Shown here piece after piece: positions 3,090 through 31,480 of a stretch of 64,000 nucleotides of DNA (position 1 is its first letter; the number at the start of each line of letters is the position of its first letter). The translations under genes and the position numbers were made by a program. The DNA comes from Anaerolineales bacterium. GTDB taxonomy: Bacteria > Chloroflexota > Anaerolineae > Anaerolineales > Villigracilaceae. The stretch is taken from the NCBI GenBank assembly GCA_020634885.1, contig JACKAW010000011.1:844-64843 (forward strand), read 5' to 3'. The notes beneath the pieces were generated by a model. It did not search any database. It was not told the DNA's origin and worked only from the letters and a program-made list of their open reading frames with translations.

Positions 3090-3092
3090 ATT

Positions 3093-3455: not shown

Positions 3456-3465
3456 GGCAGCCTCC

Positions 3466-3498: not shown

Positions 3499-3509
3499 TC
3501 CATTGTATT

Positions 3510-4611: not shown

Positions 4612-4620
4612 CAAATCAAC

Positions 4621-4654
4621 AGCCCCTAAAGGTTTATAAAAACCTTTAGGGGCT
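4621..4654 (+). terminator. Terminator after ssb
   Basis: Perfect palindrome agcccctaaaggttt-ataaa-aacctttaggggct followed by an A/T-rich run. Confidence 0.7.
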
Positions 4655-4666
4655 CAATAAAAAATC

Positions 4667-5005: not shown

Positions 5006-5007
5006 CC

Positions 5008-5697: not shown

Positions 5698-5701
5698 AAG
5701 T

Positions 5702-6723: not shown

Positions 6724-6851
6724 TTTTTTATGTGATTCATCATCTGTAATTTGTGACAAATTACGATACCGAAAAACGGGGCAATGATTTAACATCATCA
6801 ACGGAGACCGTTGCAGACACCTCTAAAAGATCGTCTCCTCCTTTGGCGAAA

Positions 6852-6880
6852 GTTGATGCCGGGTTTTGCCCGGCATCAAC
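6852..6880. terminator. Stem-loop between convergent genes
   Basis: gttgatgccggg-ttttg-cccggcatcaac. Confidence 0.6.
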
Positions 6881-6907
6881 ATTTTAATTCTTATTAATTG
6901 GGGAAAA

Positions 6908-8359: not shown

Positions 8360-8370
8360 GAATTTTGAGC

Positions 8371-9522: not shown

Positions 9523-9574
9523 AAAAAATCTCCTGAAAAAAGATTCTAACACCTTTTCGATTACAATTTTGAAT

Positions 9575-12746: not shown

Positions 12747-12757
12747 TCCCAAACCTA

Positions 12758-13786: not shown

Positions 13787-13824
13787 AAAGAGGCTCATGT
13801 GCTTTTCACATGAGCCTCTTTTTT
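13785..13824. terminator. Bidirectional terminator between convergent genes
   Basis: A5-gaggctcatgtg-N5-cacatgagcctc-T6. Confidence 0.8.
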
Positions 13825-14692
13825 ATTGTAGTATAGGTGTAATGGCATCAAACCATTTTTGCGCGATGATGTCGTAACCAGCTTGGTTGGGATGATTGCC
13901 GTCATCATACAGGGTGGCGGGGTTTGTAAAAATATCGGTTGAGTAAAAGTCTACGGTGAGAGCGCCGTATTGGGCGGCTTTATCTAGAATGATCTGGTTG
14001 TATACACTTGCCTGAGCAGACATGCGATTTAATTCATCTGGTGTAATGGCGACAAACGCTTCACCCTTTAATGCAACCGGACGTTTGGATTGATCGTCTA
14101 ACAGGGCAATCACGACCTGAGCGCCCGTTCCGCGCAGTTGGCTGAGGATTGTGTCGATATTCGCCTCAAAATGTTCAGCATCTGCAGCATCCCCGGCATC
14201 GTCAATGTCACCGCCAAACTCGTACAAATACCATAAATCATTACTGCCGATCCACACCAATGCCAAACCTGCTTTTCCTTGCGCTGTTGCATCTTGCAAT
14301 TCGCCTACCGCCCGCGTGAGTTGACTCTCCAATCCCTGATCGCCATTGATAAGCGCATCTGAATTCCAGCCAGATTGACCAAAATTAGACAGAGTCGAAT
14401 CTGGGCGGACGCTGTTAATCATATCCAATAAGCGACCGGGATATCCACGCCCTGAGTCGTCGCCGTCACCTTGGGTAAGGCTATCGCCGAGGGCAACCAT
14501 GTGAACCGGTCCAGCAGGAAGCGGGGCGGCGGGTTGCAGATTAGTGGGCGGATTATTCTCCGTTTGAGTCACCACTTCGGTTTGAGGGGCGTCACCAACT
14601 GCTTCATCAGTCGTTGGGTCTATTGCAGGAGCAGAACCTGGCAGATTGCAGGCAGAGAGAAGTAAAGCGAAAAGCAAAATATATTTTTTCAT
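13823..14692 (-). CDS. SGNH/GDSL hydrolase family lipoprotein
   Basis: Lipobox LLSAC. Block I is ALGDSLTQG, block III is WIGSNDLW and block V is DGNHPNQAGY. Confidence 0.85.
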   Translation of the reverse strand: MKKYILLFALLLSACNLPGSAPAIDPTTDEAVGDAPQTEVVTQTENNPPTNLQPAAPLPAGPVHMVALGDSLTQGDGDDSGRGYPGRLLDMINSVRPDSTLSNFGQSGWNSDALINGDQGLESQLTRAVGELQDATAQGKAGLALVWIGSNDLWYLYEFGGDIDDAGDAADAEHFEANIDTILSQLRGTGAQVVIALLDDQSKRPVALKGEAFVAITPDELNRMSAQASVYNQIILDKAAQYGALTVDFYSTDIFTNPATLYDDGNHPNQAGYDIIAQKWFDAITPILQ

Positions 14693-14759
14693 GACATGTC
14701 CTCAGTTGATCTTTCTTCAAATTATACAGAAGCGATTCTTTTCAGACATGTCAAAGTTG

Positions 14760-15971
14760 TTATGTCAAAATATTCCTCACCACGGGTTGATATTCGGGGA
14801 AGACGTCACTGGTGGCGGGGTTGTTCAGGCGCTTCGACAACACTTCAGAGAGCACATCGCGGTAATCGGTGGTTACCGCCAAGTCACCGGGACCGATGAG
14901 TTGACCTTCACCAAGTCCGGGCCACTGCCCGTGGACTTTGCCGCCATCCACGTTGCCGCCCAAGACCATCATCATGCTGCCGTGTCCGTGATCCGTGCCG
15001 AGGCTTCCGTTCTCGTAGGCGCGCCGCCCAAACTCAGACATGGTGACGGTGGTCAGTTTGCTCATGTGGTCTGCCATATCGGCATGGAAGGCGGCGAGAC
15101 CTTCGGCGAGGTCTTTCATCAGATTTGGCATAAGACCCGTCATTGAGCCTTGTGTGAAGTGTGTGTCCCAGCCGCCAAGGTCAATGGCAGAGACTTCGAG
15201 ACCGACTTCCGATTTGATGAGCATGGCGGTTTGTTTGAGGGCGAGACCGAATTCGGTGTCGGGGTAATTAGTGGAAAGTGGCGAGTGGTAAGTGGATGGA
15301 TCAAGTTTTTGGAGGGTGTCCATGATGGATAAAGTATCTTGACCGAGTTCATCGTTTTGATAAACGTAACTTAGCGCGGCTCGCATTTGTTGCAGGGCAC
15401 GTACATCGCCGCCGAGGTGGAAGTCTGCGATGGAGCGCAGGGCGGAGACGGGGACACTTCCGCTCAAACTGCGCTGCGGACGGGTGCCCATGCCCACGGC
15501 TCTCAATGGCGACGAGTTGCCGGTGTTCAACGTGGCGAGGTGACGTCCAATCCAACCCGAGGCGGGACCACGTTCATCGTCCACACCGCGTTCCATCAAT
15601 TCCATCGCTTTGAAGTGACTGCGCGATTCATCAGGTGCGCCACAAGCGTGAATGATGGCAAGTTGCTGAGTCTGCCATGCATCAAGCAGCGGACTCATAT
15701 TGGGATGCAAACCGAAGAAGCCATCCAAATCCACAACTCTTTCTTCTTTCTTCTTTTTCGAATCATCAGGTCTTGCAATGCCCAAGGTCGGGCGCAATTG
15801 ATAATAGGCTTCTTCGCCATGCGGCACGACCATGTTGAGCACGTCCGCGGCGCCGCGCAGGAAGACGACCACGAGCGTATCTCCGCGCGGGGCGGTGTTC
15901 TTGGGTGCGAAAGACAGGCGCGGCATCCAGGTTTTTTGTGGGTGTTGGATTAAGGGTAAGGTTTGTAACAT
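14760..15971 (-). CDS. DUF1501 domain protein (sulfatase-fold)
   Basis: GGWDTH..., TMSEFGRR and GTDHGHG motifs typical of DUF1501. I prefer the ATG at 15971, which has a GGAG RBS 6 nt upstream, over the track start at 16040, which lies inside the repeat hairpin. Confidence 0.85.
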   Translation of the reverse strand: MLQTLPLIQHPQKTWMPRLSFAPKNTAPRGDTLVVVFLRGAADVLNMVVPHGEEAYYQLRPTLGIARPDDSKKKKEERVVDLDGFFGLHPNMSPLLDAWQTQQLAIIHACGAPDESRSHFKAMELMERGVDDERGPASGWIGRHLATLNTGNSSPLRAVGMGTRPQRSLSGSVPVSALRSIADFHLGGDVRALQQMRAALSYVYQNDELGQDTLSIMDTLQKLDPSTYHSPLSTNYPDTEFGLALKQTAMLIKSEVGLEVSAIDLGGWDTHFTQGSMTGLMPNLMKDLAEGLAAFHADMADHMSKLTTVTMSEFGRRAYENGSLGTDHGHGSMMMVLGGNVDGGKVHGQWPGLGEGQLIGPGDLAVTTDYRDVLSEVLSKRLNNPATSDVFPEYQPVVRNILT

Positions 15972-15994
15972 AAGATCTCCAATAAAATTTTTCC

Positions 15995-16091
15995 CGTCAT
16001 TGCGAGGGCGCTCTTGCTCTTTGCCCGAAGCAATCTCCAACTCAGCTCATGAGATTGCTTCGGACGGAAGAACACCGTCCTCGCAATGACG
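15995..16091. repeat. Nested long inverted repeat (REP-like) between DUF1800 and DUF1501
   Basis: Outer arms are cgtcattgcgagg (15995-16007) and cctcgcaatgacg (16079-16091). Inner arms are ccgaagcaatctc (16025-16037) and gagattgcttcgg (16051-16063). Confidence 0.8.
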
Positions 16092-16096
16092 AAATA

Positions 16097-17578
16097 TCAT
16101 CGCCACTGAAATGCAGGCGACGCAATCAAACTTGCGGCGATGATTTGCAGAGTCTCTTCAGGCGTGGCGCCAGCCGAATGGACGGTATCAATCATCCCGT
16201 CGCGGGTGAGGCGATCTAACGGCGTGCCTAAAAGCAATGAGGTGAGGGAATCAATATCAGTGTGTAAACTGCCTGTAGAAGCGACATCCAATAAAGCATT
16301 GAGGTTGTGTTTCGTCTTTGGAAGTTCGTTACGAATTAATTCAAAAGCAAATTGCCAGCGCGGCATGAGATTGCCTTGCCACGCGTCGCTCGTGTCGGGG
16401 TAGCCGTCGGGCGTCGTCCAGTTGAAATACATTTGCCCCATTTGCATGAGCGGGTCGTGCATGGCAACGCCATCGGTTTCAACGTTGATCATACGCAACG
16501 CAGAGAGCACAAAGTTGAGCGGACGTTTGTATTTGGGCTGCGCGAAGGCGAGACCTTCAAGCAGGATGACGCGCAGAACCGATTTGATATCGCCTTTGGT
16601 GGCGAGAAATGTTTGCGCGGCTTTCTCGATAATTTCCTGTGGCGGCTCATCGGCGATGAAGCGACGCGCGAGTTTGGTTGAAATAAATTTTGCCGTGGAT
16701 GGATGCAACGCGAGATGCTCGATGACTTGCTCCGCCTCACGCTGACCTGATTCCTGAATCGCGAGACCCAAAACATTTTTCTCGCCTGATTCATGTTGGT
16801 CTTGCTTGAAGACGAAATCGCCAAGCCAGAAATGTTCCTTGACCGACCAACCCGTGAGACACCGCGCGAGTTGCATGACATCGTTTTGAGTGTAGCCGCC
16901 GTTCACGCCGAGTGTGTGAAGTTCCATCAGTTCGCGGGCGTAGTTCTCGTTGGGCGTACCTTTGACATTGGCTTGATTGTCGAGATAGGTGAGCATGGCG
17001 GGCGAATGTGCGGACGCCCACACCAGATCGCGGAAGTTGCCGAGGGCGTGTTTGCGAATCACGTCGCGGTCATCAACGGTCTTGAGATAGAAGCATGGTT
17101 CTTTCTCGATGAAGATGTTGAAGTGGTCGCTCCAGAAATCGGCCATCACTTCGTAGAGTTGACGCTTGCTGTAAAGTTGACGCAGGAAGGTGGCTTGACG
17201 CAGTTCATTAATGGGATGTTCACGATCATAGCCATCGAAGAGTTGATTGGTAACGGCTTCAATCTCGTTAGCTGCCATTTTTAGAGTTTTAAAGTTGGAA
17301 AGTTGCAGGTCGCAGGTTAGGTCGTTGATGGCTTCATAATCAAGTTGTTCTTCGATGTAATTTGCCAAGCCGATCTCTGCCAAGCGGGCGCGTTCTTCCA
17401 CTCTCGCGCCGAAGGTGATGCGGTTGAGCGCGGTAAAGTCTGCTACGCTGAGCGGACTCCACGGGACGGATGGCAGGTCGTCTGTCAGTCGTCGCAGGGC
17501 GGGGGCGCAGGCGTTGAGCGCGGCAGATGCAGAGAGAAGGGTGGTGAGTTTGAGGAAGTCGCGGCGAGATAGGGGCAT
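16097..17578 (-). CDS. DUF1800 domain protein with twin-arginine signal
   Basis: MPLSRRDFLKLTTLLSASAALNA Tat signal. Length and conserved blocks (MLTYLDN, ENYARELMELHTLG) are typical of DUF1800, which is usually paired with DUF1501. Confidence 0.85.
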   Translation of the reverse strand: MPLSRRDFLKLTTLLSASAALNACAPALRRLTDDLPSVPWSPLSVADFTALNRITFGARVEERARLAEIGLANYIEEQLDYEAINDLTCDLQLSNFKTLKMAANEIEAVTNQLFDGYDREHPINELRQATFLRQLYSKRQLYEVMADFWSDHFNIFIEKEPCFYLKTVDDRDVIRKHALGNFRDLVWASAHSPAMLTYLDNQANVKGTPNENYARELMELHTLGVNGGYTQNDVMQLARCLTGWSVKEHFWLGDFVFKQDQHESGEKNVLGLAIQESGQREAEQVIEHLALHPSTAKFISTKLARRFIADEPPQEIIEKAAQTFLATKGDIKSVLRVILLEGLAFAQPKYKRPLNFVLSALRMINVETDGVAMHDPLMQMGQMYFNWTTPDGYPDTSDAWQGNLMPRWQFAFELIRNELPKTKHNLNALLDVASTGSLHTDIDSLTSLLLGTPLDRLTRDGMIDTVHSAGATPEETLQIIAASLIASPAFQWR

Positions 17579-17585
17579 GGTGACC

Positions 17586-17662
17586 AGTAGAAAGTGGAAA
17601 GTGGGAAGTGGTAAGTGGTAAGTGGGAAGTGGGAAGTGACGAGTTACAAGTTACGAGTTACG
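17586..17662. repeat. Tandem heptanucleotide array (11 phase-locked units, AGTNNNN)
   Basis: agtagaa agtggaa agtggga agtggta agtggta agtggga agtggga agtgacg agttaca agttacg agttacg. Confidence 0.9.
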
Positions 17663-18183
17663 AGGTTGGGGTTTCCTTGTGTACTTGTTTCCTTGTCTAC
17701 TTCTCTCTGACGTGGAGTCCAATTCAGTAAAGCAAAACCAGTTGCACCAAACGAAACAAGGATGATGGGAATCCACACGAAGAGCCAGCCGATAAGGGGG
17801 AAGAAGGCGGCGAGTTCTAGGATGACCGAGCCACGGATGAATCCGTTCAATGGAGTCATGTTGCTGTGTTTGGAAAGTCTCGCGCCAAGGTGAGCAGCGA
17901 TGCCTGCGGAACCGATGGTAGAGATGGCGAGCGCTGCGCCGAGCAGAATCCAGCCGATGAATTTGGCAGGTCCAAATGGAAGCGCGAGCAGAATGACGAT
18001 GGGAATCGTCACGGCAATGACGAGGATGAGTCCCAGCCAGAAGGTGCCCCAAGGCGTTTTTTCCACGCGTGAATGGGCACGAGCAATGAGAGACGGGAAC
18101 AATAGCCACCATGCCGTGAGCATGGCGGGGAAGGCGATTCCGATAATGAGCAGGATGAAGAAGATGGCAGAGATGTCAGCCAT
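17644..18183 (-). CDS. Hypothetical 4-5 TM membrane protein (paralog of 18384-18869)
   Basis: Hydrophobic profile. It shares layout with the upstream gene (N-terminal TM, basic loop, ..TP..F.LG.., C-terminal P.IGW motif). The last 7 codons run into the heptamer array. Confidence 0.6.
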   Translation of the reverse strand: MADISAIFFILLIIGIAFPAMLTAWWLLFPSLIARAHSRVEKTPWGTFWLGLILVIAVTIPIVILLALPFGPAKFIGWILLGAALAISTIGSAGIAAHLGARLSKHSNMTPLNGFIRGSVILELAAFFPLIGWLFVWIPIILVSFGATGFALLNWTPRQREVDKETSTQGNPNLVTRNL

Positions 18184-18243
18184 GGGGTATGTCCTTTCGT
18201 TTGGTTGATATAAGGGATACAGGGATGGGGCGGGGAAAGTTGC

Positions 18244-18278
18244 AGGGAATAGTGAGTAGTGGATAGTGGGTAGTGAGC
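18244..18278. repeat. Tandem heptanucleotide array (5 units)
   Basis: agggaat agtgagt agtggat agtgggt agtgagc. Confidence 0.8.
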
Positions 18279-18285
18279 AGGAAAA

Positions 18286-18315
18286 GAAAAAGACGCGCTA
18301 GCCGCGTCTTTTTCA
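18286..18315. terminator. Stem-loop flanked by A- and T-runs
   Basis: aaaaagacgcg-ctagc-cgcgtcttttt. Confidence 0.7.
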
Positions 18316-18383
18316 AAAATATCCGGTGGTCTCGATACGCCTTCGGCTATCGCCTCAGGCTACTCGACCATCGAGATTGGACT

Positions 18384-18869
18384 TTAACTTTTTTGGAAGA
18401 ATCCCAAGATCGTGGCACCGATGCCAGTGAAGGTGACGTAGGGCAGAAGCAGGAACCAACCGACAAAGGGCAGAGCGCAGGCGATGCAGAGGATGACGGA
18501 ACTCCAGAGGTTGCGCTTCCATGCGGACATGTCTGGGAAGAGACGTTCGGCGAGGTGGTGGACGGTGGCGGTGAGTCCCACACTCAAGAGGACGGAGAGA
18601 AAGGCGAGGATGAGCAAGGCAGGGATGGTGAGTATCCCATTGACGAAGGAGCCTGCGTTCTCGGCGAGCGAGAGCATGACAAAGGCGATCAAGCCAAAGA
18701 AGAAAAAGTTGACCATGCCCAAGCCGAAGGAGCGCCCTGGGGTGAGGGTTAGGCTGGTTTGGGTCTTGGCGACGCGGGCGGTGAAGAGTGCGCCGATGAC
18801 GAGAAAGTAGGCGCTGAGGGTGATGGTCAGCAAGAGGATGATGAGGGTAAGGCGAAGGATGTCGGTCAT
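18384..18869 (-). CDS. Hypothetical 4-5 TM membrane protein (paralog of 17644-18183)
   Basis: GGAGA RBS 4 nt upstream of the ATG. Hydrophobic profile. C-terminal LPFVGWFLLLP is comparable to FPLIGWLFVWIP in the paralog. Confidence 0.6.
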   Translation of the reverse strand: MTDILRLTLIILLLTITLSAYFLVIGALFTARVAKTQTSLTLTPGRSFGLGMVNFFFFGLIAFVMLSLAENAGSFVNGILTIPALLILAFLSVLLSVGLTATVHHLAERLFPDMSAWKRNLWSSVILCIACALPFVGWFLLLPYVTFTGIGATILGFFQKS

Positions 18870-18887
18870 GATTTCTCCAAAGGTTTT

Positions 18888-18970
18888 GTAGGGGCGAGGT
18901 CTCCTCGCCCTATGTCATTGTGCAGACGTTATTGGGCGGGGGATACCACTTCGTGGCACAAGCCCCGCCC
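18888..18970. repeat. Two GC-rich hairpins of the GTAGG-flanked family
   Basis: The first is gtaggggcgagg-tct-cctcgccctat (18888-18913). The second is gggcgggg-N21-ccccgccc followed by ctac (18934-18974). Confidence 0.7.
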
Positions 18971-19501
18971 CTACGAATGGCGATGATTTCTTAACAACAA
19001 CCCATTCCCAAAGATCCAAAAGATGGACACGATGGAGAGGGCGATGAAGAGGGTGGATAGTTCAACGGGATAAGCGGGCAGGTTGGGGAATTGGGTAATT
19101 GGTAACTGGAAAGTAGAAAGTGTGTCTAACCATGAAGTCCACAAAGATTGAAGCTCGAAGAGCCAGGTGGTGAAGGATGGCGTTTCAATTTGTGGAATCA
19201 TGATGGAGAAGAATGGAATGGCGACGATGAGTGCAACCAGCGCGGCAGCGGCTTGCAGAGTCGCTGTCAGCGTGAGCCAGCGTGGGAGTTGTGGAGTCAG
19301 GCTGGGGCGGGGAGAGAAGCGAGCGGCGAGATTGGTAGATAATTCCACGTCGGGCAGAGAATCCAAATCTGTGAATAAGGCTTGGAGTGCCGAGAGTCGC
19401 GCCGCGCATTCGTCACATGAGTCGAGATGCGTTTCGATCTCTGCGCGTTCAGTGGAAGCGTTATCCAAATATTCGTTGAGTTGCTCGTTAGTCAGGTGCA
19501 T
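18971..19501 (-). CDS. Anti-sigma factor (zf-HC2 type) with one TM helix
   Basis: The N-terminal H..CDEC motif (THLDSCDECAARL) is typical of ZAS-type anti-sigma factors. It overlaps the ECF sigma gene stop by 14 nt. Confidence 0.75.
   Translation of the reverse strand: MHLTNEQLNEYLDNASTERAEIETHLDSCDECAARLSALQALFTDLDSLPDVELSTNLAARFSPRPSLTPQLPRWLTLTATLQAAAALVALIVAIPFFSIMIPQIETPSFTTWLFELQSLWTSWLDTLSTFQLPITQFPNLPAYPVELSTLFIALSIVSIFWIFGNGLLLRNHRHS
19085..19119. repeat. Heptamer-phased repeat inside the anti-sigma coding region
   Basis: ggggaat tgggtaa ttggtaa ctggaaa gtagaaa, which encodes ...TFQLPITQFPNLP... on the minus strand. Confidence 0.6.
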
Positions 19502-20024
19502 GGAGTTTCTCCGCGAGAAGTTTGCGCGCGCGGAAGAGATGGCTCTTCACGTCGCTGAGGGGGATGTTGAGTTCGCTTGCGATCTCGTCGTAGGATAGTT
19601 CTTGATAATGCCGCAGTTCGACGACGATACGATAATGCGGCGGCAGGGACGCGAGCGCGCTGCGGATCTGCTCGCTTCTTTCTTTGACCTCAACCTGCTC
19701 GCTGGGACCTTGAGTTTTATCTTCGTCCCGTTCTTCGTCGAGCGGGGCAGATGGTTTCTGTGCCTCAATATGATTCAGGCACAAATTGGCTGCCACGCGG
19801 CGAATCCATGGGCTGAATTCGCGTTCGATGTCGAAGGTGTGCAGACGGTCGAGGGCGCGGATGAAGGTCTCTTGGGCGAGGTCTTCGGCATCGGCGCGGT
19901 TGTGCAGAATGCGGTAGCAGACGTTGAACACGCTGGTCTGGTGACGGGTGACGAGGTCGCCGTAGGCTTCAGCGTCGCCGCGACGGGCTTGCAGGATCAG
20001 GTCGCGGTCGGTGGGTGCATTCAT
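19488..20024 (-). CDS. RNA polymerase sigma-70 factor, ECF subfamily
   Basis: Region 2 (VFNVCYRILHNRADAEDLAQETFIRA) and region 4 (LSYDEIASELNIPLSDVKSHLFRARKLL) signatures, ~178 aa. Confidence 0.9.
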   Translation of the reverse strand: MNAPTDRDLILQARRGDAEAYGDLVTRHQTSVFNVCYRILHNRADAEDLAQETFIRALDRLHTFDIEREFSPWIRRVAANLCLNHIEAQKPSAPLDEERDEDKTQGPSEQVEVKERSEQIRSALASLPPHYRIVVELRHYQELSYDEIASELNIPLSDVKSHLFRARKLLAEKLHAPD

Positions 20025-20053
20025 GGCTAGAGTGTAATACAGGCGGGGCGGTT

Positions 20054-20089
20054 AAAAAGTTGCAGGGGCGGCACTTCTGCCGCCCCTGC
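20054..20089 (-). terminator. Terminator of the giant surface-protein gene
   Basis: On the minus strand, gcaggggcggca-gaag-tgccgcccctgc is followed by aacttttt. Confidence 0.75.
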
Positions 20090-20102
20090 TGGTAATGTTG
20101 GG

Positions 20103-23100
20103 CTATTCGTCTTCAACCCGTACAAGAACTGCGCGCACGAGTCTCCTGAAGAGGTAGGTATCATTGGACGGGTTATACGTCTGACAGGTGATCAACGTAA
20201 GGTATGAATGGTCTTTCAAAGATTCGAACGCATACGCCGTAGTATCGGGATGAACCAGTTTCTGCTTTCTCACTTCGAAAATATATTTTGAGCCATTCAT
20301 ATGCACAATGATCTGGTCTCCATACACAAGTTGTTTCAGGTCCGAGAAGGGACCATCCAACCCGCTGGCGTTGGTCACATGGGCGGTCAATACGGAGTTC
20401 CCTTCCCATGAGGGGAAGGCTGTGCCGTTCAACCAGCCGATATTGTTTTCAAGCCATTTCACGTCCCATTCGCCGTTAAGTTGCGGCACACCGACAATGG
20501 GTTCCTTCACGTTCAGGGCGGGTATTTCCAGCCAAATATCACCAAACTGCGAATACGCCTGTGCTTCCGTCTGTTCTGGGAGCAGGGTTACCTTACCGGG
20601 GGCAAAGCCGGTAGCAGGCATTTTCTTCAGCTTATCACCAGACTCTTCGTCGTTTACATTGACCGGGTTGATCGTAAGAGCGGAAGAATTGCTGTAAAGA
20701 TCCAAGCCGCTTGGAGGATCGTACCAGCGTTCAGTAGACCTGCTGTTATAAGCAGAAAGCTCAATGGGATTCCCAGTGAGGATATCCGGGTCAATCTCCA
20801 GTGAAGTCCACTCAACAAAAGCGACATTCGTCGCCGGAGTACCCACCAATACAGCAGTAAAGCGGATGGTAGAGGTCTGCCCCAGCGGGAAGGATGCCCA
20901 GTTGAAAACAAGGTCTGTTGTAGTCGAGCCGGGGTTGCAGTAATCTGAAGCAGGAGTATCAGGAGCCAACCCGGCAATATATTGAACCGTACATTCAACA
21001 TACTGTAACTCCGCCTGAATGATATCCTGAACGACCACATCAAAGGCATCTGCCCGGCTTGCGGGGCTGGTGTGGTTGATCACAATCGTGAACTCGATCG
21101 GTGTTCCCAGGGGAACATTCTGAGTCACGTTGGCTGTTTTGAGGATCGCCATATTCGGTTCGATCACTCTGACATTCGGTGCGCTGGTTTCAAACGAACC
21201 GCCAGTGAATGACCATGTTACTGCGTTGTTCAAGGTAACATCATTGACATTCTCAACGACGTTCAAGACCACGGCGCGGTATTGAATCACGATGGTCTGC
21301 GGGGTGGTTTGTGCAGAAATATCGCCGAGGCTGAATTCCACCTGCCTGCCAGGGTTGGCGGGATTGGTGGGGCTGTCTCCAGCGTTGACAACGGCTGAAA
21401 CCACAGGGGATGCGGGCGGGGCGGGAGGTGGAGCCGGACAAACGGAAGCCGTCATATCCACGCCAGCGACCATCACAGAAGAACAATCTACAAATGCCAA
21501 GCCCTTGTCCATCACATCGGTCACTTTAACATCTGTCAAAGCAATGCCAAGGGGCAGGCTGATGGAAATCCGGTAGGTAACGACCTCGCCGATGGTCACA
21601 TCGGCGCCAGTGGTATGAGCCTCGCTGGTGGTAATGATGGTCTTCGACATTCCATTATCAGAACGGAAGCCAAAATCTGCTGTGGGGTTATAGGTGGTGC
21701 CGTTGCTATTGGTGACCGTGTTTTCAGTCTTTGCTCCCACAGAACCCGCGGTAAGCGGAATGGCGTTGCTATAGGCGGCTCCATAATTTTCGCCAACGCC
21801 ATTGTCATTATCATTGGTGTTGGTATCTGGTGTGGTGGTATCGACGGCGTCGAATGTATCCACCGTGCCGACATAGCCAACCGGCGGCGTTACTTTGACG
21901 ATGTAATCACCCTGCGGCAAACCGGTAAAGATGTATTTTCCATCGATCAAGGTGGTCATCGTGCCAGAGCCAACCGTGATCTCCGTTACGCCGTCGCTGG
22001 CATAAAGCTGAACAATGGCATCAGCCAACAGCGTGTCACCGCTGTTATAGTCGCCGCTGCTGTCCACATCTATGAAGACCAGATCACCAACCGATACGCG
22101 GTAGAAGCCGAAATCAACCGTCATATTTGCGCGCGCATCGGGGTTACTGCCCTGTCCAACGCCGGTTTCCAGGTCTGTTTCACCGGTTGGTTCAGAATTA
22201 TTGGGACCCAGGGTAACCGCCAACGAAAGGACTCTTCCGCCGCTGAGTGTTCCATTATCGTCCGAGTCTTTGTCGTCATCCCCGCCGCCTGCGACGCCAT
22301 CGGGACCGAGGTCTGGGTCTGGCGCTGCGGTTTCTGTTGTTGTGCCGTCCGATTGCATACTCGTAGCCGAAGACCAATAGCCGTATAGCACGCCGCCCGA
22401 GTTGAAGTTACTGGCGGCAACTGCCACGACATAATCACCCGCGGCGAGGTTATCGAACAGGTAATACCCGCCATTGGTGGTTGTATCGGTACTTAAAACC
22501 GTTGAAAGGTCGCTGGCGGCATACAATTCAACCAACACACCATTCACCCCAACTTCACCCGGGGTGATGTCGCTATCATTGTCGGTGTCGAACCAGACGC
22601 GATTGCCCAAGGCGTACACGGTGGTGACAACACCAAAGTCGACGGTGTTGTCGGTGGTGGTGCCATTGGCATTGAGCGCCTGAATGTTGGTCTTGGCAGA
22701 TGTATCTGGTTTTGTGCCGCCGCCTGCCGTCATGGTCAGAACATTGGAGAAGACTTCTCCATTCCCAACACCCACACCGTTATCGTTATCATCCGTGTTC
22801 CAATCGGGGCTGGCGCTATCGTTCGCATCGTAATCATCGCGGGTACTGGATGCACCGGAGGAGATATCCACACTGACAATGTAATTACCAGCGGGCCACC
22901 CGATGAATGAGTAATGTCCGTTGATATCCGTGGTGGTTGTGTCAAGTAACGTGGTGGTGGTACCTGCCGCATTGGAAGCGTACAGATTGACAGACACACC
23001 TTGAATGGGCGTATCTGAGTTGTTGAAGGTTCCGTCTTTATCCAGATCCGCAAATACAAGGTTGCCGATCTCGGTGCGATAGAAACCGAAGTCCACGGTC

Positions 23101-26100
23101 ATGTTGGCGCGTCCATCCGGCTGGTCTCCCTGTGAACCGCCGTTCAAATCTGTTTCGGCAGTCGGTTCGGTGAGTCCGTTTGGTCCAATGGTTACGGCAG
23201 ATGAGATGACCGCACCCGGGAGTGTGACACCTGTTTGCAGGGTGCCATTGTCGTCCAAATCTTTGTCGTCATCCCCGCCGCCTACGATTCCATCGGGACC
23301 GAGGTCTGGGTCTGGCGCTGCGGTCTCTGTTGTTGTGCCGTCAGCTTGCATGGTCGTAGCAGACGACCAATAGCCATTCAATGCCCCGCCCGTGTTGAAG
23401 TTAGCGGCTGTGATCACCACAACATAATCGCCGGGGGCGAGGTAATCGAACAGGTAATAGCCGTTGGCGTTGGTGGTGGTAACACGGGGAGAGCCGTTGG
23501 CGATGACTGGCGTGGTGGGGTTTCCGCTCGCATCCGCGTGATACAGAGCCACTTCGACATTAGAGACACCCACTTCGCCTGTATCCATGAGGCTGTTGTT
23601 ATCGGTATCGAACCAGACGCGGTTGCCGAGCGCATAGGTTTCTACAAAGCCAAAATCGAGGGTAAGGTCACTGTAGTTATCTGCCTCGCCGTAACGCCCG
23701 CGTGAGTTGGGTCCATCACCGGCGGTGGGGTTGAAACCGAGTGTGGTTGTGGTGTCGCCGCTGCCGGTTTCGCCAGTGGGAACTCCGCTCAATGTTGCGC
23801 CGGAGAAGTTTACAGTGGTGGAAATGATCCCGTATGGCGAGCCGGTTGGGGTGGGGTTGAGGCGGTCGATCCCGTTATCCAGGCTGTCGGTATTGTTCGC
23901 GGCGTTATCGACATGATCGGTGCTGCTTGTGTATCCGACCAGGGCAGAGTATGTACCGCCTGCATCGAAGTTATCGGCATCTACGGCAAGGATGTAGCGG
24001 TTGGGGGGCAGGTTGTCGAAAAGGTAATAGCCGTTCGCATCGGTCACATCCCAAGCGACCCAGTCATCGGTTGTATCGCCAAGGGTTCCGCGATCATCAG
24101 GAATGCCATCATTATTGTTATCCAGATACAAACGGACAAGCGCATTGGCAACGGGAGTTTCATCCGCTGTATCAAACACGCCGTTATTGGTATTTGTGCC
24201 TGCGCCGGTATCGAACCATAAATAGTTGCCCAAACTGCGCGGACGGCGGACGAAGCCGAAATCCATGGTCAGGTTGCTGTTTGTATCGGTTTGCCCGTAA
24301 AGCCCGACATTATTCGTTCCGTATAAAGTCGTGTTGGAACTTAGGTCGGTTTCTCCTGTGGGCGTTGTTTGAGGTTCAGTTCCATACGCCATAACGATGA
24401 CCGTGCTGCTGATGCCGTTTGTGGCGGGGTTGTTATTATCCACACCGTTATCGTCTTTATCTTCGTCATCGGCTGGTGCGGTGAGCGGCGTGGTATCGGT
24501 GCTGCTAATGTAATTTCGCAATGGCTGCCCAGCCGCAAAGTTGGAGGCGGGGATGTGGATGTAGTAATCTGTACCGGGTTGGATGCGGTCGAACAGATAA
24601 TATCCGTTGGCATCGGTTGTTTCGTAGCGGATATTTGTATCAGGGGTTGCTCCACCAACCTGAAGCCCGGGGGTTCCATTGGTATCTGACCACAGTTCCA
24701 CACGAACGCCTGAAACGCCGGGTTCGGTGCCGTCTTGAATGCTGTTGTTAAAGCCGCTGCGGAAGGTGGTTTCACCCGCGCCGCTATCAAACCAGACGCG
24801 GTTGCCCAAACTCATGGGCGGAATAAAGCCGAAGTCAATGGTGAGGTTGCTGGTGGCGTCTGTTTCGAGGTAGCGTCCGCGTGAATTCACGCCATCATAT
24901 TCGGTGGGGTTTATGCCGAGGTTGAGGGTGGCGGGGTTGCCATCTGGGTCGGGTTGATTGCTTAGGTGAGTTTCGCCTGTTGGTTCAGGGAAGAGTACAT
25001 CACGGGTTAATACGATGGGTCCGCTAAAGACGCCTGTTGCTTCAGGCGTATCTGTATTTTCGCCATTGTCATCCACGTCGATTTCGGCGGTGGTTGTGCC
25101 GCCATTGACATCGCTGGTTTCTGTACCGGTGGGCTGACTGCTGTACCATCCGCGTAAGACGCCGTTAGCCGAAGGCATGGAACCTGCGCCGTCGGGGTCA
25201 AACGTATCCTGGAAGTTCCCCGGGGCAACCAACACAAAATAGGTGCCGGGGTCGAGGTTATCAAACAAGTAGAAACCGTTTGCGTCGGTGACATCAAAGC
25301 GGATGTATTCATTCCCTTCGGCGGTGCCGCTTCCGTTCCCGTCGCGATAGAGTTCCACGCGGGCTCCCGCTACGGGGAGTTCTCCCGCATCGCGGATGCC
25401 GTTATTGAGCGTTCCACCGCCAGTTCCATCGTCATACCAGAGGTAGTTACCAATGCTGAAGGCTACATCTGAGCCGCCGAAAAAGCCGAAGTCTACGGTG
25501 AGGTCGCTGTTTCCGTCTTTCTCGCCGTTCAAGCCGCGCCGGGTGGCGGCGGGACCATCACGGTCGTTACTGGAGAGGTCGCTTTCGTTCTTTTGTTCAT
25601 TATCAGAAGACAAGGGGATCGTTGCGCTGAAGACTTCTGTGCTTGGGGCAGGCAGCACAGCGGTAGAATCAATACCGTGGTCGCTGCTATCGGGGTTGGC
25701 ATCTGGCGGGTTGGTGTAGGTGGCAGAAGAAGGTGTGCCGGTACTGCTTCGCAATCCGTAAAGCGGGTCGGATGGGGTTGCGAAGTTACTGGCAGGGATG
25801 CCTACTACATAATCGCCTGCGGGGAGGTTGCTAAAGAGATAGTAGCCACCCGAATCGGTTGTCATTGTGGCGATGGGTGTGGTTGTATCTGCCGCATTAT
25901 AAAGATTGACAGTAACGCCTGCGATGCCCGGGTTTGTATCATCTGGCGGGTTGATCGTGCCGCTGTTATCCGAGTCACGCCAGACGCGGTTACCAATGCT
26001 AAAGCGTTCAGGGATGGTGATACCCACTTTTCTCGGTTCAGATGCGAGCAGGTCACGGAGGTTAAGGCTTGGGTCGAGATACGATCCAACATGTGCGAAG

Positions 26101-29006
26101 GAGTTCCAGGCGATTTCGCGTGTCTGGGCGTCGTCATTATTAAATGTGCCGACGATGGGTGAATCTTTCGGGATGGACATGAGCGCCCCAAAACGGACAA
26201 TATTCGTTGGGTCGCCTTCCACATAGGGTGCAATGGACTGTCCGGCGTTCAATCGAATACGATACGAACGAACGGTACTCCAATCGGTGATACCGGATCC
26301 GTCGTCCCAGACATTGTTACACGCGGATGGCACAAGGTTGCCAGACGGCTGGTTGAACACCTCGGGTCGGCATGGGTTGGTTGTGAGGTTGTATTCGATG
26401 GTGAAATTAGAGGCATTTAAACCCGCGCCACCCAAAAAGGAAAGAGGACCTGTCATCACTGGGCGGAATTCAGAATCTCTTGGCGTGCTTTCCAAAGTGC
26501 CGCCAGAGCCGCGATCCCCATAGTAGGGCAAAATATCGTACAGCACATAATTAAGCATGGGGACGTTGCCATCATTGAAGATGCGCAACTGGTATTCAAA
26601 ATCATCGAGTGTGGCGCTGCCGGGCGGCGGTGAAACGAACTGCCCTGGGTTTAGCGCGCCTTCAGGATAGGCTTGTGAGATACAGGGGTAACGGGTAAAA
26701 GGGTTGCTGCCCGATAAACCAACTGTACCGCCATCGGGGCAGGAGGCATCTGGCGCAAAGGTATCTTTATTAACTACAACACTGTTCAATGGATCAATAC
26801 TGCGTATCCATTTTTCGCCGCGTAAGGCAGCAGAACGATCCACGATATAGACATCTGTAGCTCGGCAGGTGTTTTCTGTCGTGTTGCCGTCGCCATCAAT
26901 GTTTGTAGAATCCGTCAGGGTTGTGCCTGTTTCGCAGCGGACTTCGGTTGAGTCGGTTGCCACTTGAATGGTGTTGGTGCGCGAGCCGTGAATCTGTCCG
27001 CTGGGGATGCGGGCGAAAAATTCCACGGTAAGGAGGTTGCTGCCCAGTACATTTTCATTCACGGTCAAGCCAGAAAATTCCCAACGGAGGGTGTTGCCAG
27101 CCCCGGGGTTGGGTCCGCTTTGGGCGAAGGTGACAGATGCTCCTGGCGGAAGAGCCGATCCATTCAAGCGGGCATCTCCTGCACGGACGAAGACCAAGTC
27201 ACTGGGGAGAGTATCCACAATGGTAGGATCTACGAGGGGTTCCGAGGAGCGCTCGGTCATATCTATGGTGAGTACATAGCGAAGGGTATCGCCCGGCAGG
27301 ATGGTCGTATCGGATGTGAAGGTGTTGATGAGCGGGTCTTCTGCTGAATCCCATGATGCGCCTGGAGTTTCTGCTTTACTTACATTCAGGCTTACATAAT
27401 CGCCCTGCACGGTCATATCTTCGTTGGAGCATGGATCTATTACCGAACCGCCTGAATTGGTGCGGGTCAGGTAAACGCAGTTATCGTATGTGTCACCGAT
27501 CACAGCCGCTGGCAACGGAGCGCCATCATCTGCTGTGGTTGCTGTAGCGCGCGGCGTAACCCGGATCTGCGGCTGGGTGGTAAACGACCAAACATAGGGC
27601 AAGCCGGGCAGGTAGCTTGCACTTACATCGTCAAAATATTCAAAGCGCCAGCGCACGTTGGTGATGTTGGCTGGCAGGTTGGCAGGCGCGCCGGTCGTAT
27701 AGGTGGCAGCCGTGTTGTAGCTGACGGGCTGCCCGGGGAGGGTGGTAACCCAATTGCTGCCGTTATCGGTGGAATATTCCACATAAGCACGCACATTACT
27801 AAATGAAGAAGACCATTGTCCACTGGTTATGCTGGTTACCTGTAGTTCGGGGGGCAGGTTATCTATGAGGGTGACATCATTGGAAGGGTAGTTTGTTCCA
27901 TTAGTATTTAAGTTCAAACTAAAACGAGCCGTACCGGTAATACCAACAGGATCTCCTGAATCTGTTTTTGAATAATCAGGAACATCCTGAATAGGGACAA
28001 TATCATGGGTAAGGTCAGTGGGTGTTGGCGCAAAGCAATCTGGGCAGGGGTTGCCACCTGAATCGACATAACTCGCGGTAACGCTTGCCGAGTTTGTCAG
28101 GTTACTGCCTGTAGAATAGAATGGGGTCGGATAAATAAGGGTTACATAGCGATCAATACAACTTGGTGGAAAAAGAGGACCGGCAACAGAGGGCCAGGTA
28201 ACAACCCCAGCGCTTTCGGTGCCCCCATCAGATGCCGAAACAAAAGTAACATTCGGGGGTAAATTATCCGTTATTACAATGTTACTAAGATCGGCAATAC
28301 CGCCAGAGGGCGGGGTGATGGGACAAAGCCGTAAGCGGTAGGTCACTTCGGTATCTACTGCGGGTTCGATCACTGGAGCCACACGCGTCTTGCTTAAAGC
28401 CCAGCTTGGAGATACGGTTCCAATCGATATAGGCGGAGCGGAAGCAGGGGTTGAGTTTTGCACACCGACTGGACCCGGAGGGTCAATCCAACCAGTGACT
28501 TCGTTATCGATGGTTGCAGGCAATGGTCGGAAATCTGAGGCAACTTTTACGACAATGACAGCATCGTACTGGGTTCCATCGATGAGGTCGTCATCGTCTT
28601 TTGTGATCGTTACTGTATTGGTTCCGCTGTTGTAGTTTATGCTAAAGCCGCTTGGCACAGATGAATTTGGGGGCGGCAGGTATTGCAAACCACTTTGAAG
28701 CGTATCACTGATCTCCATTTCACCGCAGGAGGTTGTAAGGCTGCTGCATTCCCAGCGAATTCTGTAGCGAATGGTATCCCCGACCTGAACCGTGCTGACA
28801 TTATCATCCACTGTTTTGGTGAGGATCAGTTGCGGTTCACCGGCACGCAGGGGGCTGTTTTCGGCGCCGAATGAACTTATCTCATCGTTTGGCGAAACAT
28901 CCCCTGGCTCTGCCTGTACAGGAGGAAGAAAGATGGACTGCCCCGCCAGAAGCCCAAGCAAGATGAAAATTTGAAAATATCTTTTAAATGAATTTTTTTG
29001 GCTCAT
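20103..29006 (-). CDS. Giant secreted repeat protein (2,967 aa): signal peptide, DUF11-type repeat domains, eight SdrD B-type modules, and a C-terminal fused sortase domain
   Basis: Signal peptide MSQKNSFKRYFQIFILLGLLAGQSIFLPPVQA. DUF11-like blocks are present (LTKTVD..V.VGDTIRYRI). There are 8 modules of the form GN[RY][VL]W[FYR]D...TD..GYY.F.NL..G.Y.V...DFGF. The C-terminus reads KMPATGF..., GNSVLTAHV, LTLITC, FRRLVR (sortase His/Cys/Arg). I prefer the ATG at 29006 over the TTG at 29021. Confidence 0.85.
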   Translation of the reverse strand: MSQKNSFKRYFQIFILLGLLAGQSIFLPPVQAEPGDVSPNDEISSFGAENSPLRAGEPQLILTKTVDDNVSTVQVGDTIRYRIRWECSSLTTSCGEMEISDTLQSGLQYLPPPNSSVPSGFSINYNSGTNTVTITKDDDDLIDGTQYDAVIVVKVASDFRPLPATIDNEVTGWIDPPGPVGVQNSTPASAPPISIGTVSPSWALSKTRVAPVIEPAVDTEVTYRLRLCPITPPSGGIADLSNIVITDNLPPNVTFVSASDGGTESAGVVTWPSVAGPLFPPSCIDRYVTLIYPTPFYSTGSNLTNSASVTASYVDSGGNPCPDCFAPTPTDLTHDIVPIQDVPDYSKTDSGDPVGITGTARFSLNLNTNGTNYPSNDVTLIDNLPPELQVTSITSGQWSSSFSNVRAYVEYSTDNGSNWVTTLPGQPVSYNTAATYTTGAPANLPANITNVRWRFEYFDDVSASYLPGLPYVWSFTTQPQIRVTPRATATTADDGAPLPAAVIGDTYDNCVYLTRTNSGGSVIDPCSNEDMTVQGDYVSLNVSKAETPGASWDSAEDPLINTFTSDTTILPGDTLRYVLTIDMTERSSEPLVDPTIVDTLPSDLVFVRAGDARLNGSALPPGASVTFAQSGPNPGAGNTLRWEFSGLTVNENVLGSNLLTVEFFARIPSGQIHGSRTNTIQVATDSTEVRCETGTTLTDSTNIDGDGNTTENTCRATDVYIVDRSAALRGEKWIRSIDPLNSVVVNKDTFAPDASCPDGGTVGLSGSNPFTRYPCISQAYPEGALNPGQFVSPPPGSATLDDFEYQLRIFNDGNVPMLNYVLYDILPYYGDRGSGGTLESTPRDSEFRPVMTGPLSFLGGAGLNASNFTIEYNLTTNPCRPEVFNQPSGNLVPSACNNVWDDGSGITDWSTVRSYRIRLNAGQSIAPYVEGDPTNIVRFGALMSIPKDSPIVGTFNNDDAQTREIAWNSFAHVGSYLDPSLNLRDLLASEPRKVGITIPERFSIGNRVWRDSDNSGTINPPDDTNPGIAGVTVNLYNAADTTTPIATMTTDSGGYYLFSNLPAGDYVVGIPASNFATPSDPLYGLRSSTGTPSSATYTNPPDANPDSSDHGIDSTAVLPAPSTEVFSATIPLSSDNEQKNESDLSSNDRDGPAATRRGLNGEKDGNSDLTVDFGFFGGSDVAFSIGNYLWYDDGTGGGTLNNGIRDAGELPVAGARVELYRDGNGSGTAEGNEYIRFDVTDANGFYLFDNLDPGTYFVLVAPGNFQDTFDPDGAGSMPSANGVLRGWYSSQPTGTETSDVNGGTTTAEIDVDDNGENTDTPEATGVFSGPIVLTRDVLFPEPTGETHLSNQPDPDGNPATLNLGINPTEYDGVNSRGRYLETDATSNLTIDFGFIPPMSLGNRVWFDSGAGETTFRSGFNNSIQDGTEPGVSGVRVELWSDTNGTPGLQVGGATPDTNIRYETTDANGYYLFDRIQPGTDYYIHIPASNFAAGQPLRNYISSTDTTPLTAPADDEDKDDNGVDNNNPATNGISSTVIVMAYGTEPQTTPTGETDLSSNTTLYGTNNVGLYGQTDTNSNLTMDFGFVRRPRSLGNYLWFDTGAGTNTNNGVFDTADETPVANALVRLYLDNNNDGIPDDRGTLGDTTDDWVAWDVTDANGYYLFDNLPPNRYILAVDADNFDAGGTYSALVGYTSSTDHVDNAANNTDSLDNGIDRLNPTPTGSPYGIISTTVNFSGATLSGVPTGETGSGDTTTTLGFNPTAGDGPNSRGRYGEADNYSDLTLDFGFVETYALGNRVWFDTDNNSLMDTGEVGVSNVEVALYHADASGNPTTPVIANGSPRVTTTNANGYYLFDYLAPGDYVVVITAANFNTGGALNGYWSSATTMQADGTTTETAAPDPDLGPDGIVGGGDDDKDLDDNGTLQTGVTLPGAVISSAVTIGPNGLTEPTAETDLNGGSQGDQPDGRANMTVDFGFYRTEIGNLVFADLDKDGTFNNSDTPIQGVSVNLYASNAAGTTTTLLDTTTTDINGHYSFIGWPAGNYIVSVDISSGASSTRDDYDANDSASPDWNTDDNDNGVGVGNGEVFSNVLTMTAGGGTKPDTSAKTNIQALNANGTTTDNTVDFGVVTTVYALGNRVWFDTDNDSDITPGEVGVNGVLVELYAASDLSTVLSTDTTTNGGYYLFDNLAAGDYVVAVAASNFNSGGVLYGYWSSATSMQSDGTTTETAAPDPDLGPDGVAGGGDDDKDSDDNGTLSGGRVLSLAVTLGPNNSEPTGETDLETGVGQGSNPDARANMTVDFGFYRVSVGDLVFIDVDSSGDYNSGDTLLADAIVQLYASDGVTEITVGSGTMTTLIDGKYIFTGLPQGDYIVKVTPPVGYVGTVDTFDAVDTTTPDTNTNDNDNGVGENYGAAYSNAIPLTAGSVGAKTENTVTNSNGTTYNPTADFGFRSDNGMSKTIITTSEAHTTGADVTIGEVVTYRISISLPLGIALTDVKVTDVMDKGLAFVDCSSVMVAGVDMTASVCPAPPPAPPASPVVSAVVNAGDSPTNPANPGRQVEFSLGDISAQTTPQTIVIQYRAVVLNVVENVNDVTLNNAVTWSFTGGSFETSAPNVRVIEPNMAILKTANVTQNVPLGTPIEFTIVINHTSPASRADAFDVVVQDIIQAELQYVECTVQYIAGLAPDTPASDYCNPGSTTTDLVFNWASFPLGQTSTIRFTAVLVGTPATNVAFVEWTSLEIDPDILTGNPIELSAYNSRSTERWYDPPSGLDLYSNSSALTINPVNVNDEESGDKLKKMPATGFAPGKVTLLPEQTEAQAYSQFGDIWLEIPALNVKEPIVGVPQLNGEWDVKWLENNIGWLNGTAFPSWEGNSVLTAHVTNASGLDGPFSDLKQLVYGDQIIVHMNGSKYIFEVRKQKLVHPDTTAYAFESLKDHSYLTLITCQTYNPSNDTYLFRRLVRAVLVRVEDE

Positions 29007-31445: not shown

Positions 31446-31453
31446 ATAAGTTT

Positions 31454-31480
31454 GTAGGTCACGCATAATGCGTGACCTAC
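31454..31480. repeat. Perfect 11-bp-stem hairpin of the GTAGG-flanked family
   Basis: gtaggtcacgc-ataat-gcgtgacctac. Confidence 0.85.

Follow-up and report, generated by a model that had tools for sequence, protein, structure and literature searches.

A repeat adhesin from an Anaerolineales bacterium ends in an LPXTG-like motif joined to a sortase domain, a conserved C-terminal cassette that may sort its own passenger

The textbook account of sortase sorting has two partners that are distinct molecules, each kept at the membrane, the enzyme by an anchor and the substrate by a helix and a basic tail, so that both meet lipid II. By definition, the cargo carries LPXTG followed by a hydrophobic stretch and a positively charged tail, and the His-Cys-Arg triad of the enzyme cuts after the Thr and transfers the cargo to an amine (PMC8225981). 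The two have been joined by design in an engineered autocyclase (target-LPGTG-linker-SrtA), where the thioester forms unimolecularly and the reach comes from about 10 linker residues together with the disordered SrtA N-terminus, Q60-G74 (PMC9985607). Working autocyclases have linkers of 7–19 residues plus about 14 disordered SrtA residues, and their thioester is lost to intramolecular attack, to intermolecular attack giving 'tandem' products, or to hydrolysis (PMC9985607); SrtA-LPETG-target fusions self-cleave (PMC2901362). Here we describe a natural gene with cargo, motif, linker and sortase in the order of the autocyclase. It lies in a 64,000 nucleotide stretch of an Anaerolineales bacterium (assembly GCA_020634885.1, contig JACKAW010000011.1, positions 844 to 64,843 of the forward strand), hereafter called the window, and encodes a secreted repeat adhesin of 2967 amino acids (aa). 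With moderate confidence, and arguing from sequence, structural models and analogy, we read the final 172 residues as a self-contained, probably single-turnover sorting cassette, which would hand the adhesin over to an amine of the cell envelope.

The C-terminal part of the translated adhesin runs ...KK-MPATG-FAPGKVTLLPEQ..., followed by the sortase domain and the stop codon. The final 172 aa begin with KKMPATGFAPGKVTLLPEQ and contain IPALNVKEPIVG, GNSVLTAHV, LTLITC and FRRLVR in that order (overall, KKMPATGFAPGKVTLLPEQTEAQAYSQFGDIWLEIPALNVKEPIVG...GNSVLTAHV...LTLITC...FRRLVRAVLVRVEDE and the stop), and MPATG, at residue 2796, is the only (L/I/V/M)PxTG in the whole protein. The stop codon is at 20103-20105 and the open reading frame (ORF) is uninterrupted upstream to a TTG at 29021; the ATG at 29006 is the likely start and gives the 2967 aa product, with the in-frame TTG as an alternative. 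NCBIfam models detect DUF11 repeats, an RrgB-type isopeptide domain and the generic sortase family TIGR01076 in the adhesin. An earlier sequence-only reading of this gene had reported a signal peptide, DUF11-type domains, eight SdrD B-type modules and, in the last 172 aa, the ordered signature elements of a sortase, and its description is borne out by translation, Pfam and NCBIfam. Its central claim, that a substrate-like pentapeptide and a catalytically intact sortase share one polypeptide, also stands, and the design is conserved in relatives. The canonical sorting signal is missing from the adhesin, as that reading had it: the pentapeptide is present near the end of the cargo (LPxTG in the family, MPATG in the window protein) and is followed by a conserved linker and the sortase domain, with no transmembrane-like segment, while the protein terminates in ...AVLVRVEDE, without a positively charged tail. 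The LPXTG-anchor model TIGR01167 has no match in the window protein at E ≤ 0.01.

On its profile matches, invariant triad and modelled fold, the C-terminal domain is a genuine sortase with a predicted transpeptidase activity. Pfam matches it to PF04203 over profile positions 1-124 of 125, scoring 69.6 bits where the cut-off is 26.6 (E = 2.6e-19), NCBIfam matches it to TIGR01076 with 47.8–53.8 bits where the cut-off is 39.35, and the His/Cys/Arg triad is aligned. Residue invariance was taken from an alignment of 103 cassette sequences (A2), in which His104, Cys169, Arg182 and Arg186 are invariant; they correspond to protein residues 2876, 2941, 2954 and 2958. As in S. aureus SrtA (Cys184/Arg197), the Arg follows the Cys by 13 residues. 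The AlphaFold2 model, which covers the final 195 residues, has a mean predicted local distance difference test score (pLDDT) of 90.8 and a predicted template modelling score (pTM) of 0.86, and displays the eight strands of the sortase barrel, with the His placed after strand 4, the Cys in strand 7 and the Arg in strand 8. When this model was compared with the Protein Data Bank (PDB) by Foldseek, 123 matches were obtained at E ≤ 0.001, and all 50 matches listed are sortases.

The best of the Foldseek matches are class C enzymes, namely A. oris SrtC-1 (2xwg; E = 1.2e-10, template modelling score ~0.6) and C. perfringens SrtC (6ixz/7d6t). Class E sortase structures rank after class C among the Foldseek matches listed, and a sequence search of the PDB agrees with the structural one (class C, 6ixz/7d6p, E = 1.6e-11). 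A class, which the sequence-only reading had hoped to see assigned, is not supplied by any NCBIfam class model, all of which stay under their cut-offs (bit scores, with the cut-offs in brackets): class C 48.5–53.1 (160), class D 38.9–44.5 (165), SrtD 39.6–45.7 (140), class F 36.2–41.5 (166), class E 31.2–36.9 (160) and class GN 24.8–30.5 (158). The class A and class B models give no match at E ≤ 0.01. We place the domain in the sortase superfamily, where it is not assignable to classes A–F. An N-terminal membrane anchor, which is typical of sortases but not strictly defining for them, is absent, the domain being C-terminal and the signal peptide of the cleavable type.

Relatives were assembled from genome loci and protein-database matches in three overlapping sets, and number 297 after de-duplication. 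Motif and sortase occur together in every relative in which both are readable (297 sequences); a single motif alone would be weak evidence, and this co-occurrence makes it more than a chance match. A first protein search, with the last 205 aa as the query, gave 258 matches, and among the best 120 of these all matches with an organism name are Chloroflexi/Anaerolineae, most of the matches being unnamed. Nearly all sequences from this search that are long enough have LPxTGF about 40 residues ahead of the sortase core, and many are contig-truncated fragments with DUF11 upstream. A genome scan with the single window protein returned no confirmed relative. When an alignment of 26 cassettes was used instead, over one genome per Genome Taxonomy Database (GTDB) species, at least 589 confirmed cassette loci were found in the species-representative genomes, of which 79 were fetched, all from Anaerolineae-type metagenome-assembled genomes. 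In the fetched loci with the signature, the sortase forms the last ~170 aa of an ORF that is 313 to more than 3500 aa from stop to stop, and xPxTGF lies about 73 residues ahead of the catalytic His.

A HMMER search of 1.84 billion cluster representatives (50% identity clusters) returned at least 1518 representatives at E < 1e-30. The best 150 of the 1518 are 254–3030 aa long, and the match always reaches the C-terminus. Conservation of the fusion and of the motif segment, which the sequence-only reading had singled out for comparison, is upheld by these representatives: xPxTGF is present in 149 of the 149 new sequences among the best 150 (the first residue being L in 115, I in 18, V in 7, N in 4, M in 1 and another residue in 4). 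The triad signature is kept in 148 of the 149, the Cys lies 24–29 residues from the protein end, and none of the 149 has a transmembrane-like 19-mer in its last 175 aa. Several genomes contribute two or more separate cassette loci. One locus (L011) carries three cassette genes (325-2499, 2835-4865 and 8279-10522; 676–747 aa), two of them adjacent and the third about 3.4 kb further on, and another (L047) carries two adjacent giant genes (2222-10537 and 10731-20123) for proteins of 2771 and 3130 aa.

Such a fusion could be an artefact, with an adhesin and a stand-alone sortase joined by a sequencing or assembly error or by the recent loss of a stop codon, an option that the sequence-only reading had raised. 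Apart from the unusual architecture itself, this explanation can point to a few database entries that look like stand-alone sortases beginning with LPATGF. The same architecture is, however, found in all 85 signatures of the window and the 79 loci and in the best 150 of the 1518 representatives, the stand-alone-looking entries are frameshifted pieces of longer genes, and the identical full-length protein is present in a second assembly. Accidental fusion by a lost stop codon is therefore refuted by the comparative data, and we regard an artefact as almost certainly the wrong explanation. The second copy of the 2967 aa protein is encoded in GCA_020433725.1 (L080, 13.8-kb contig JAGRCE010000058.1), where it is flanked by the same extracytoplasmic function (ECF) sigma factor and PD40 genes.

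Entries of 170–320 aa that start at or near LPATGF were considered as true stand-alone sortases and rejected, as they reflect frameshifts or truncation. The two that were inspected are both frameshift fragments: P0097 and P0106, on long contigs, are pieces of frameshift-broken genes in which the upstream domain continues in other frames. Most of the other entries of this kind are truncated and lie on contigs of 1–2 kb. Two loci (L081, ERZ25039527 contig_52509; L082, ERZ25039508 contig_11870) contain many frameshifts that split the genes for the cassette protein, a tRNA synthetase and CLIPPER_2, and frameshifts of this kind lead to false 'stand-alone sortase' entries in protein databases. In one 249 aa entry (P0053), PF14451/PF01927 is joined to a sortase core that has no LPXTG linker; this entry appears to be a chimera that arose in assembly or gene calling, and not a true alternative architecture.

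The window and the 79 loci together make up a sample of 1.2 Mb that is biased to the vicinity of cassette genes. In this sample, 85 of 85 sortase signatures sit at the end of a longer ORF, and behind each LPxTGFAP linker comes a sortase domain of 161–173 aa, so that enzyme and motif are strictly one to one. A regex scan of the 1.2 Mb found no credible combination of LPXTG, helix and basic tail; four matches to the canonical signal were dismissed as spurious, being membrane-protein ends or off-frame ORFs. No stand-alone sortase was seen in the same sample near the cassette genes, and the sequence-only reading was right that the window has no separate sortase gene, there being no TLxTC-type signature in the 64 kb beyond the adhesin's own.

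A logo of 142 sequences gives the motif as L85/I8/M1, P100, x, T97, G100 (percent), and the linker after the Gly as F99 A89 P94 xxx T95 x L90 P76 x Q88 P78 xxxx Y85, after which strand 1 begins (..W/L-L-E-I-P). The family consensus is a true LPxTG, and the Met of the window protein is a rare variant, present in about 1% of relatives. Upstream of the motif Leu there is no conservation in the 142 sequences, and the spacer is rich in Ser, Thr, Ala and Gly; a conservation boundary at the Leu is expected if LPXTG marks a border between passenger and enzyme that is cut. The spacing from the Gly to (L)EIP is 23–26 residues in 292 of 297 sequences, and this stretch between the Gly and strand 1 varies as little in length as that between His and Cys within the catalytic core (62–65 residues). 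In the window protein, 19 residues separate the motif Gly from strand 1.

In the model of the window protein, pLDDT is 50–56 over the spacer and rises to 88 in the block with KLKKMPATGF and 97 in that with PGKVTLLPEQ, although the residues of these two blocks are coil. In a replicate model of a relative (P0027, 314 aa, canonical LPTTG at 144-148; pTM 0.61) the block means are 56 and 47 in the spacer, then 82 where LPTTGFA lies and 90 in the block after it, and the upstream immunoglobulin-like domain folds independently. From the fixed spacing and the rise in pLDDT in two models, motif and linker are counted as a structured part of the modelled sortase module, in which disorder stops at LPXTG. 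In one relative with an ice-binding-like passenger (L034, 7889-10516), the motif is IPAIGF, with Ile in place of Thr, and the His, Cys and Arg are kept; this motif may be a natural variant that is non-cleavable or of different specificity.

A docked linker would also suit a pseudo-substrate, in which LPXTG and linker form a permanent, uncleaved lid over the active site and the domain stays on the adhesin, where it acts on other proteins or serves for binding. An N-terminal lid, some 20 residues ahead of strand 1, is a feature of class C sortases. Foldseek aligns up to 178–199 columns of the model, the N-terminal segment included, to the A. oris SrtC-1 chains, and the linker is confidently docked in both models. 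We nevertheless consider a lid improbable, since the motif conforms to the genuine substrate consensus (P100, T97, G100) and the class C lid motif DP(W/F/Y) is absent from the linker GFAPGKVTLLPEQTEAQAYSQFGD as read from its sequence. The triad retained in 148 of 149 representatives argues against decay into a binding module, and the 1.2 Mb offers no other candidate substrates, either canonical signals or enzyme-less LPxTGFAP.

A Sec signal peptide starts about three quarters of the 51 complete relative ORFs, and the remaining ones look like mis-chosen starts or truncated ORFs. Many cassette proteins, such as those of L002, L004, L006, L008, L010, L035, L073 and L077, resemble one another in the c-region that ends the signal peptide, PVTPA(H/Y/R)A, after which comes an Ala. 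The passengers of the relatives are unrelated to each other, and include ice-binding-like proteins, PD40 and DUF5122 propellers, TIG and PMP repeats, and sequences with no known domain: the cassette is a portable tail on unrelated secreted passengers. In many relatives (P0006, P0027, P0032, P0058; A2 columns ~10-110; L081, 5600-6000) a domain of about 100 aa directly precedes the spacer, with the consensus NPxNY(L/I)LV...G.F.T..C.GG..DD...Y.L..CGTTSI.D..GN.LN.G.D..F.F.V. AlphaFold2 predicts a separately folded beta domain here, one that is absent from the window protein, which has DUF11 repeats instead.

The following course of events is proposed for the cassette, in which cleavage, action in cis and the identity of the acceptor are inferred from sequence, models and analogy. 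The adhesin would be exported by Sec via its N-terminal signal peptide, and the C-terminal sortase domain, emerging last, would fold with the linker (GFAP...T.LP.QP....Y) packed on its surface, which would keep the adjacent LPXTG (MPATG in the window protein) at a fixed place beside the enzyme. Cys2941, aided by His2876 and Arg2954, would then attack the Thr2799-Gly2800 bond of its own chain, which would leave the sortase domain loaded with the whole passenger as a thioester. An amine of the cell envelope, most likely that of a peptidoglycan stem peptide or of a lipid-linked precursor, would resolve the thioester and leave the adhesin covalently fixed, while the spent sortase fragment of about 168 residues, with GFAP at its N-terminus, would be released. 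There would thus be one enzyme per passenger, used once or a few times, and neither partner would need a membrane anchor. Chemistry in cis is feasible, given that engineered constructs of the same order work and that the natural linker of 19–26 residues is within their range.

Several points weigh against this proposal. Without a membrane anchor, there is no evident route for a soluble acyl-enzyme to lipid II, and the kinship to class C, the pilus polymerases, favours a protein lysine over peptidoglycan as the acceptor. In the models, the motif could dock on the domain elsewhere than at Cys2941, and the Met of the window protein in place of the consensus Leu might weaken recognition of the motif. 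All the relatives are from uncultured, metagenome-assembled genomes, and stand-alone sortases may exist elsewhere in these genomes, outside the biased 1.2-Mb sample.

The acceptor could also be water. In that case the cassette would be a one-shot protease, a removable helper for folding or export, and the passenger would be freed or held non-covalently. Hydrolysis is among the fates of the autocyclase thioester (PMC9985607) and occurs in SrtA-LPETG fusions (PMC2901362). The Ser/Thr/Gly-rich spacer, however, is reminiscent of the stalks with which anchored surface proteins of Gram-positive bacteria span the wall, and adhesin-type passengers need attachment to the cell in order to work. As hydrolysis by sortases is also slow relative to transpeptidation, self-release of this kind seems quite unlikely.

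If sortase and substrate were instead on different molecules, the sortase of one adhesin would process the LPXTG of another and a protein amine (the mature N-terminus or a Lys) would resolve the thioester, which we think rather unlikely. The product would be a head-to-tail or isopeptide-linked covalent fibre or surface mesh, pilus-like but made without a separate pilin sortase, an outcome that we likewise hold to be doubtful. Head-to-tail polymerisation, like self-anchoring or self-cleavage, had been among the options of the sequence-only reading, and the sequences are compatible with each of them. It would suit the class C pilus polymerases, which are closest by profile score and fold, the RrgB-type isopeptide and SpaA-like folds of the window passenger, which are typical of pilins, and the tandem paralogues of several genomes (three in L011, two in L047). 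Engineered autocyclases also yield head-to-tail 'tandem' products at higher concentration (PMC9985607). Set against these points, the window protein has no YPKN-type pilin motif and few Lys (38 of 2967 residues), the passengers are so unrelated that no shared acceptor Lys is evident, and a linker that is fixed in length and confidently docked speaks for contact within one molecule, at least for as long as the chain is uncut.

Returning to the single-turnover cassette acting on its own chain, a bolder form of the proposal can be put forward tentatively: each cargo would bring its own stoichiometric, membrane-independent 'suicide' sortase, the C-terminus would become a diffusible thioester warhead, and the system would represent a third mode of sortase action. 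Such a warhead would react with whichever amine it is tuned to, and might thus target mature peptidoglycan, the N-terminus of a following subunit (to form covalent head-to-tail fibres or the sheath of these filamentous bacteria), or even foreign surfaces, to which adhesion would be covalent.

In outline, the proposed cassette is like the Hedgehog/Hint proteins, in which a C-terminal domain makes a thioester at the end of its own passenger, a nucleophile then takes the passenger over, and the domain, having acted once, is set free. The Hint fold is unrelated, however, and works by an N-to-S acyl shift at its own first Cys, with cholesterol as the acceptor, in eukaryotes. The C-terminal domain of type IX secretion is likewise a portable domain of about 100–170 aa that is removed as the passenger is covalently attached, but it is a passive signal cut by a separate enzyme, PorU, whereas the domain of the cassette is itself the enzyme.

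Canonical LPXTG sorting, as by S. aureus SrtA, shares with the cassette the fold, the His-Cys-Arg triad, TLxTC and the Arg 13 residues past the Cys, as well as the LPxTG consensus near the C-terminus of Sec-exported surface proteins, for which SdrD_B, DUF11 and isopeptide passengers are typical cargo. It differs in that the cassette has enzyme and substrate on one polypeptide, an enzyme without an N-terminal membrane anchor, and a motif without hydrophobic helix or basic tail but with strongly conserved residues after the Gly. The lidded class C sortases are the best matches by sequence and structure, and in both they and the cassette a segment before strand 1 packs on the catalytic domain; in the cassette this segment is LPxTG and not a DP(W/F/Y) lid, there are no flanking membrane helices, and there is neither a separate pilin gene cluster nor a conserved neighbour. 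The engineered autocyclase has the same order of cargo, LPXTG, linker and sortase, and its working linker lengths bracket the natural 19–26 residues (PMC9985607). Autocyclases and the self-cleaving SrtA-LPETG-target tags (Mao 2004; PMC2901362) are man-made from S. aureus SrtA for cyclisation or tag removal, and unlike the flexible designed linkers of autocyclases, that of the cassette shows conservation and seems to be docked, while the natural cargo can be as long as 3000 aa. In the full-text literature, the coverage of which is incomplete, neither natural LPXTG-sortase fusions nor Anaerolineae sortases were found described; only the engineered analogues were found. While the enzyme and the motif are known, their cis, stoichiometric, anchor-less and portable arrangement is new in the literature covered, and it is widespread in one bacterial class.

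The features of the adhesin gene are collected in Table 1.

Table 1. Coordinates of the adhesin gene and of the parts of its product in the window
Feature	Residues	Coordinates	Strand	Basis
Whole gene, 2967-aa secreted repeat adhesin with C-terminal LPXTG-sortase cassette		20103..29006	minus	ORF list and translation
Sec signal peptide, MSQKNSFKRYFQIFILLGLLAGQSIFLPPVQA, cleaved before EPGD (predicted)	1-32	28911..29006	minus	Sequence reading, typical Sec type
N-terminal passenger, DUF11-type and Cys-pair-containing domains	33-1003	25998..28910	minus	NCBIfam DUF11 matches, translation, Cys positions; boundaries approximate
Eight SdrD B-like modules	~1004-2448	21663..25997	minus	Pfam SdrD_B, 8 stretches, E 1.2e-92; repeat starts placed by motif
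C-terminal passenger region, DUF11 and RrgB-type isopeptide domain	~2449-2775	20682..21662	minus	TIGR01451 and TIGR04226; boundaries approximate
Unconserved spacer from passenger to motif, ALTINPVNVNDEESGDKLKK		20622..20681	minus	No conservation in 142 relatives; AlphaFold2 pLDDT 50-56
Predicted sortase recognition motif MPATG	2796-2800	20607..20621	minus	Predicted scissile bond Thr2799-Gly2800
Conserved linker, FAPGKVTLLPEQTEAQAY		20553..20606	minus	Family logo, fixed spacing, pLDDT 88-97 although coil
Sortase catalytic domain, eight-stranded barrel, to protein end	2819-2967	20106..20552	minus	PF04203, AlphaFold2, Foldseek
Catalytic His (GNSVLTAH)	2876	20379..20381	minus	Invariant H104 in A2; end of model strand 4
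Catalytic Cys (LTLITC), sole Cys of cassette	2941	20184..20186	minus	Invariant C169 in A2; strand 7
Catalytic Arg, 13 residues past Cys	2954	20145..20147	minus	Invariant R182 in A2; strand 8
Second invariant Arg	2958	20133-20135	minus	Invariant R186 in A2; strand 8

Directly downstream of the adhesin gene, and also on the minus strand, are genes for an ECF sigma factor (19488-20024) and a zf-HC2 anti-sigma-like protein (18971-19501). This pair does not occur beside cassette genes in the 79 related loci, where the sole sigma factor match (L024) is about 1.8 kb away on the opposite strand. No conserved gene neighbour of the cassette was found across the 79 loci, and for want of synteny the pair and the other neighbours in the window were rejected as parts of the system. 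Elsewhere in the window, adjacent minus-strand genes for DUF1501 (14760-16040) and DUF1800 (16097-17578) proteins form a recurrent pair without an assigned function. Pfam, at the thresholds applied, gives no match for two large ORFs, at 31485-33566 (minus, 693 aa) and 10545-12746 (plus, 733 aa); the first of them has a PD40 propeller gene (30393-31466) on one side and an ATP-grasp gene (33689-34768) on the other.

In the databases, the relatives go by the names 'sortase', 'class F sortase, partial', 'LPXTG-site transpeptidase family protein' and 'hypothetical', by which both the cargo and the built-in motif are hidden. A compact LPXTG-linker-sortase cassette is a candidate self-cleaving or self-ligating tag that could improve on engineered autocyclases and self-cleavage tags, and catalysis in cis or in trans by a sortase becomes testable in a natural system. 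A large natural family that lacks both anchors, and in which enzyme and substrate are fused one to one, would change the textbook picture of sorting. If the bolder form of the proposal is true, the engineered autocyclase would have a counterpart in nature, and the cassette might be the principal route by which an entire bacterial class displays proteins covalently on its surface. Anaerolineae are abundant filamentous bacteria of wastewater sludge, digesters and sediments, and the cassette would account for the surface display of adhesins, ice-binding-like proteins and propeller proteins in this major and poorly studied group.

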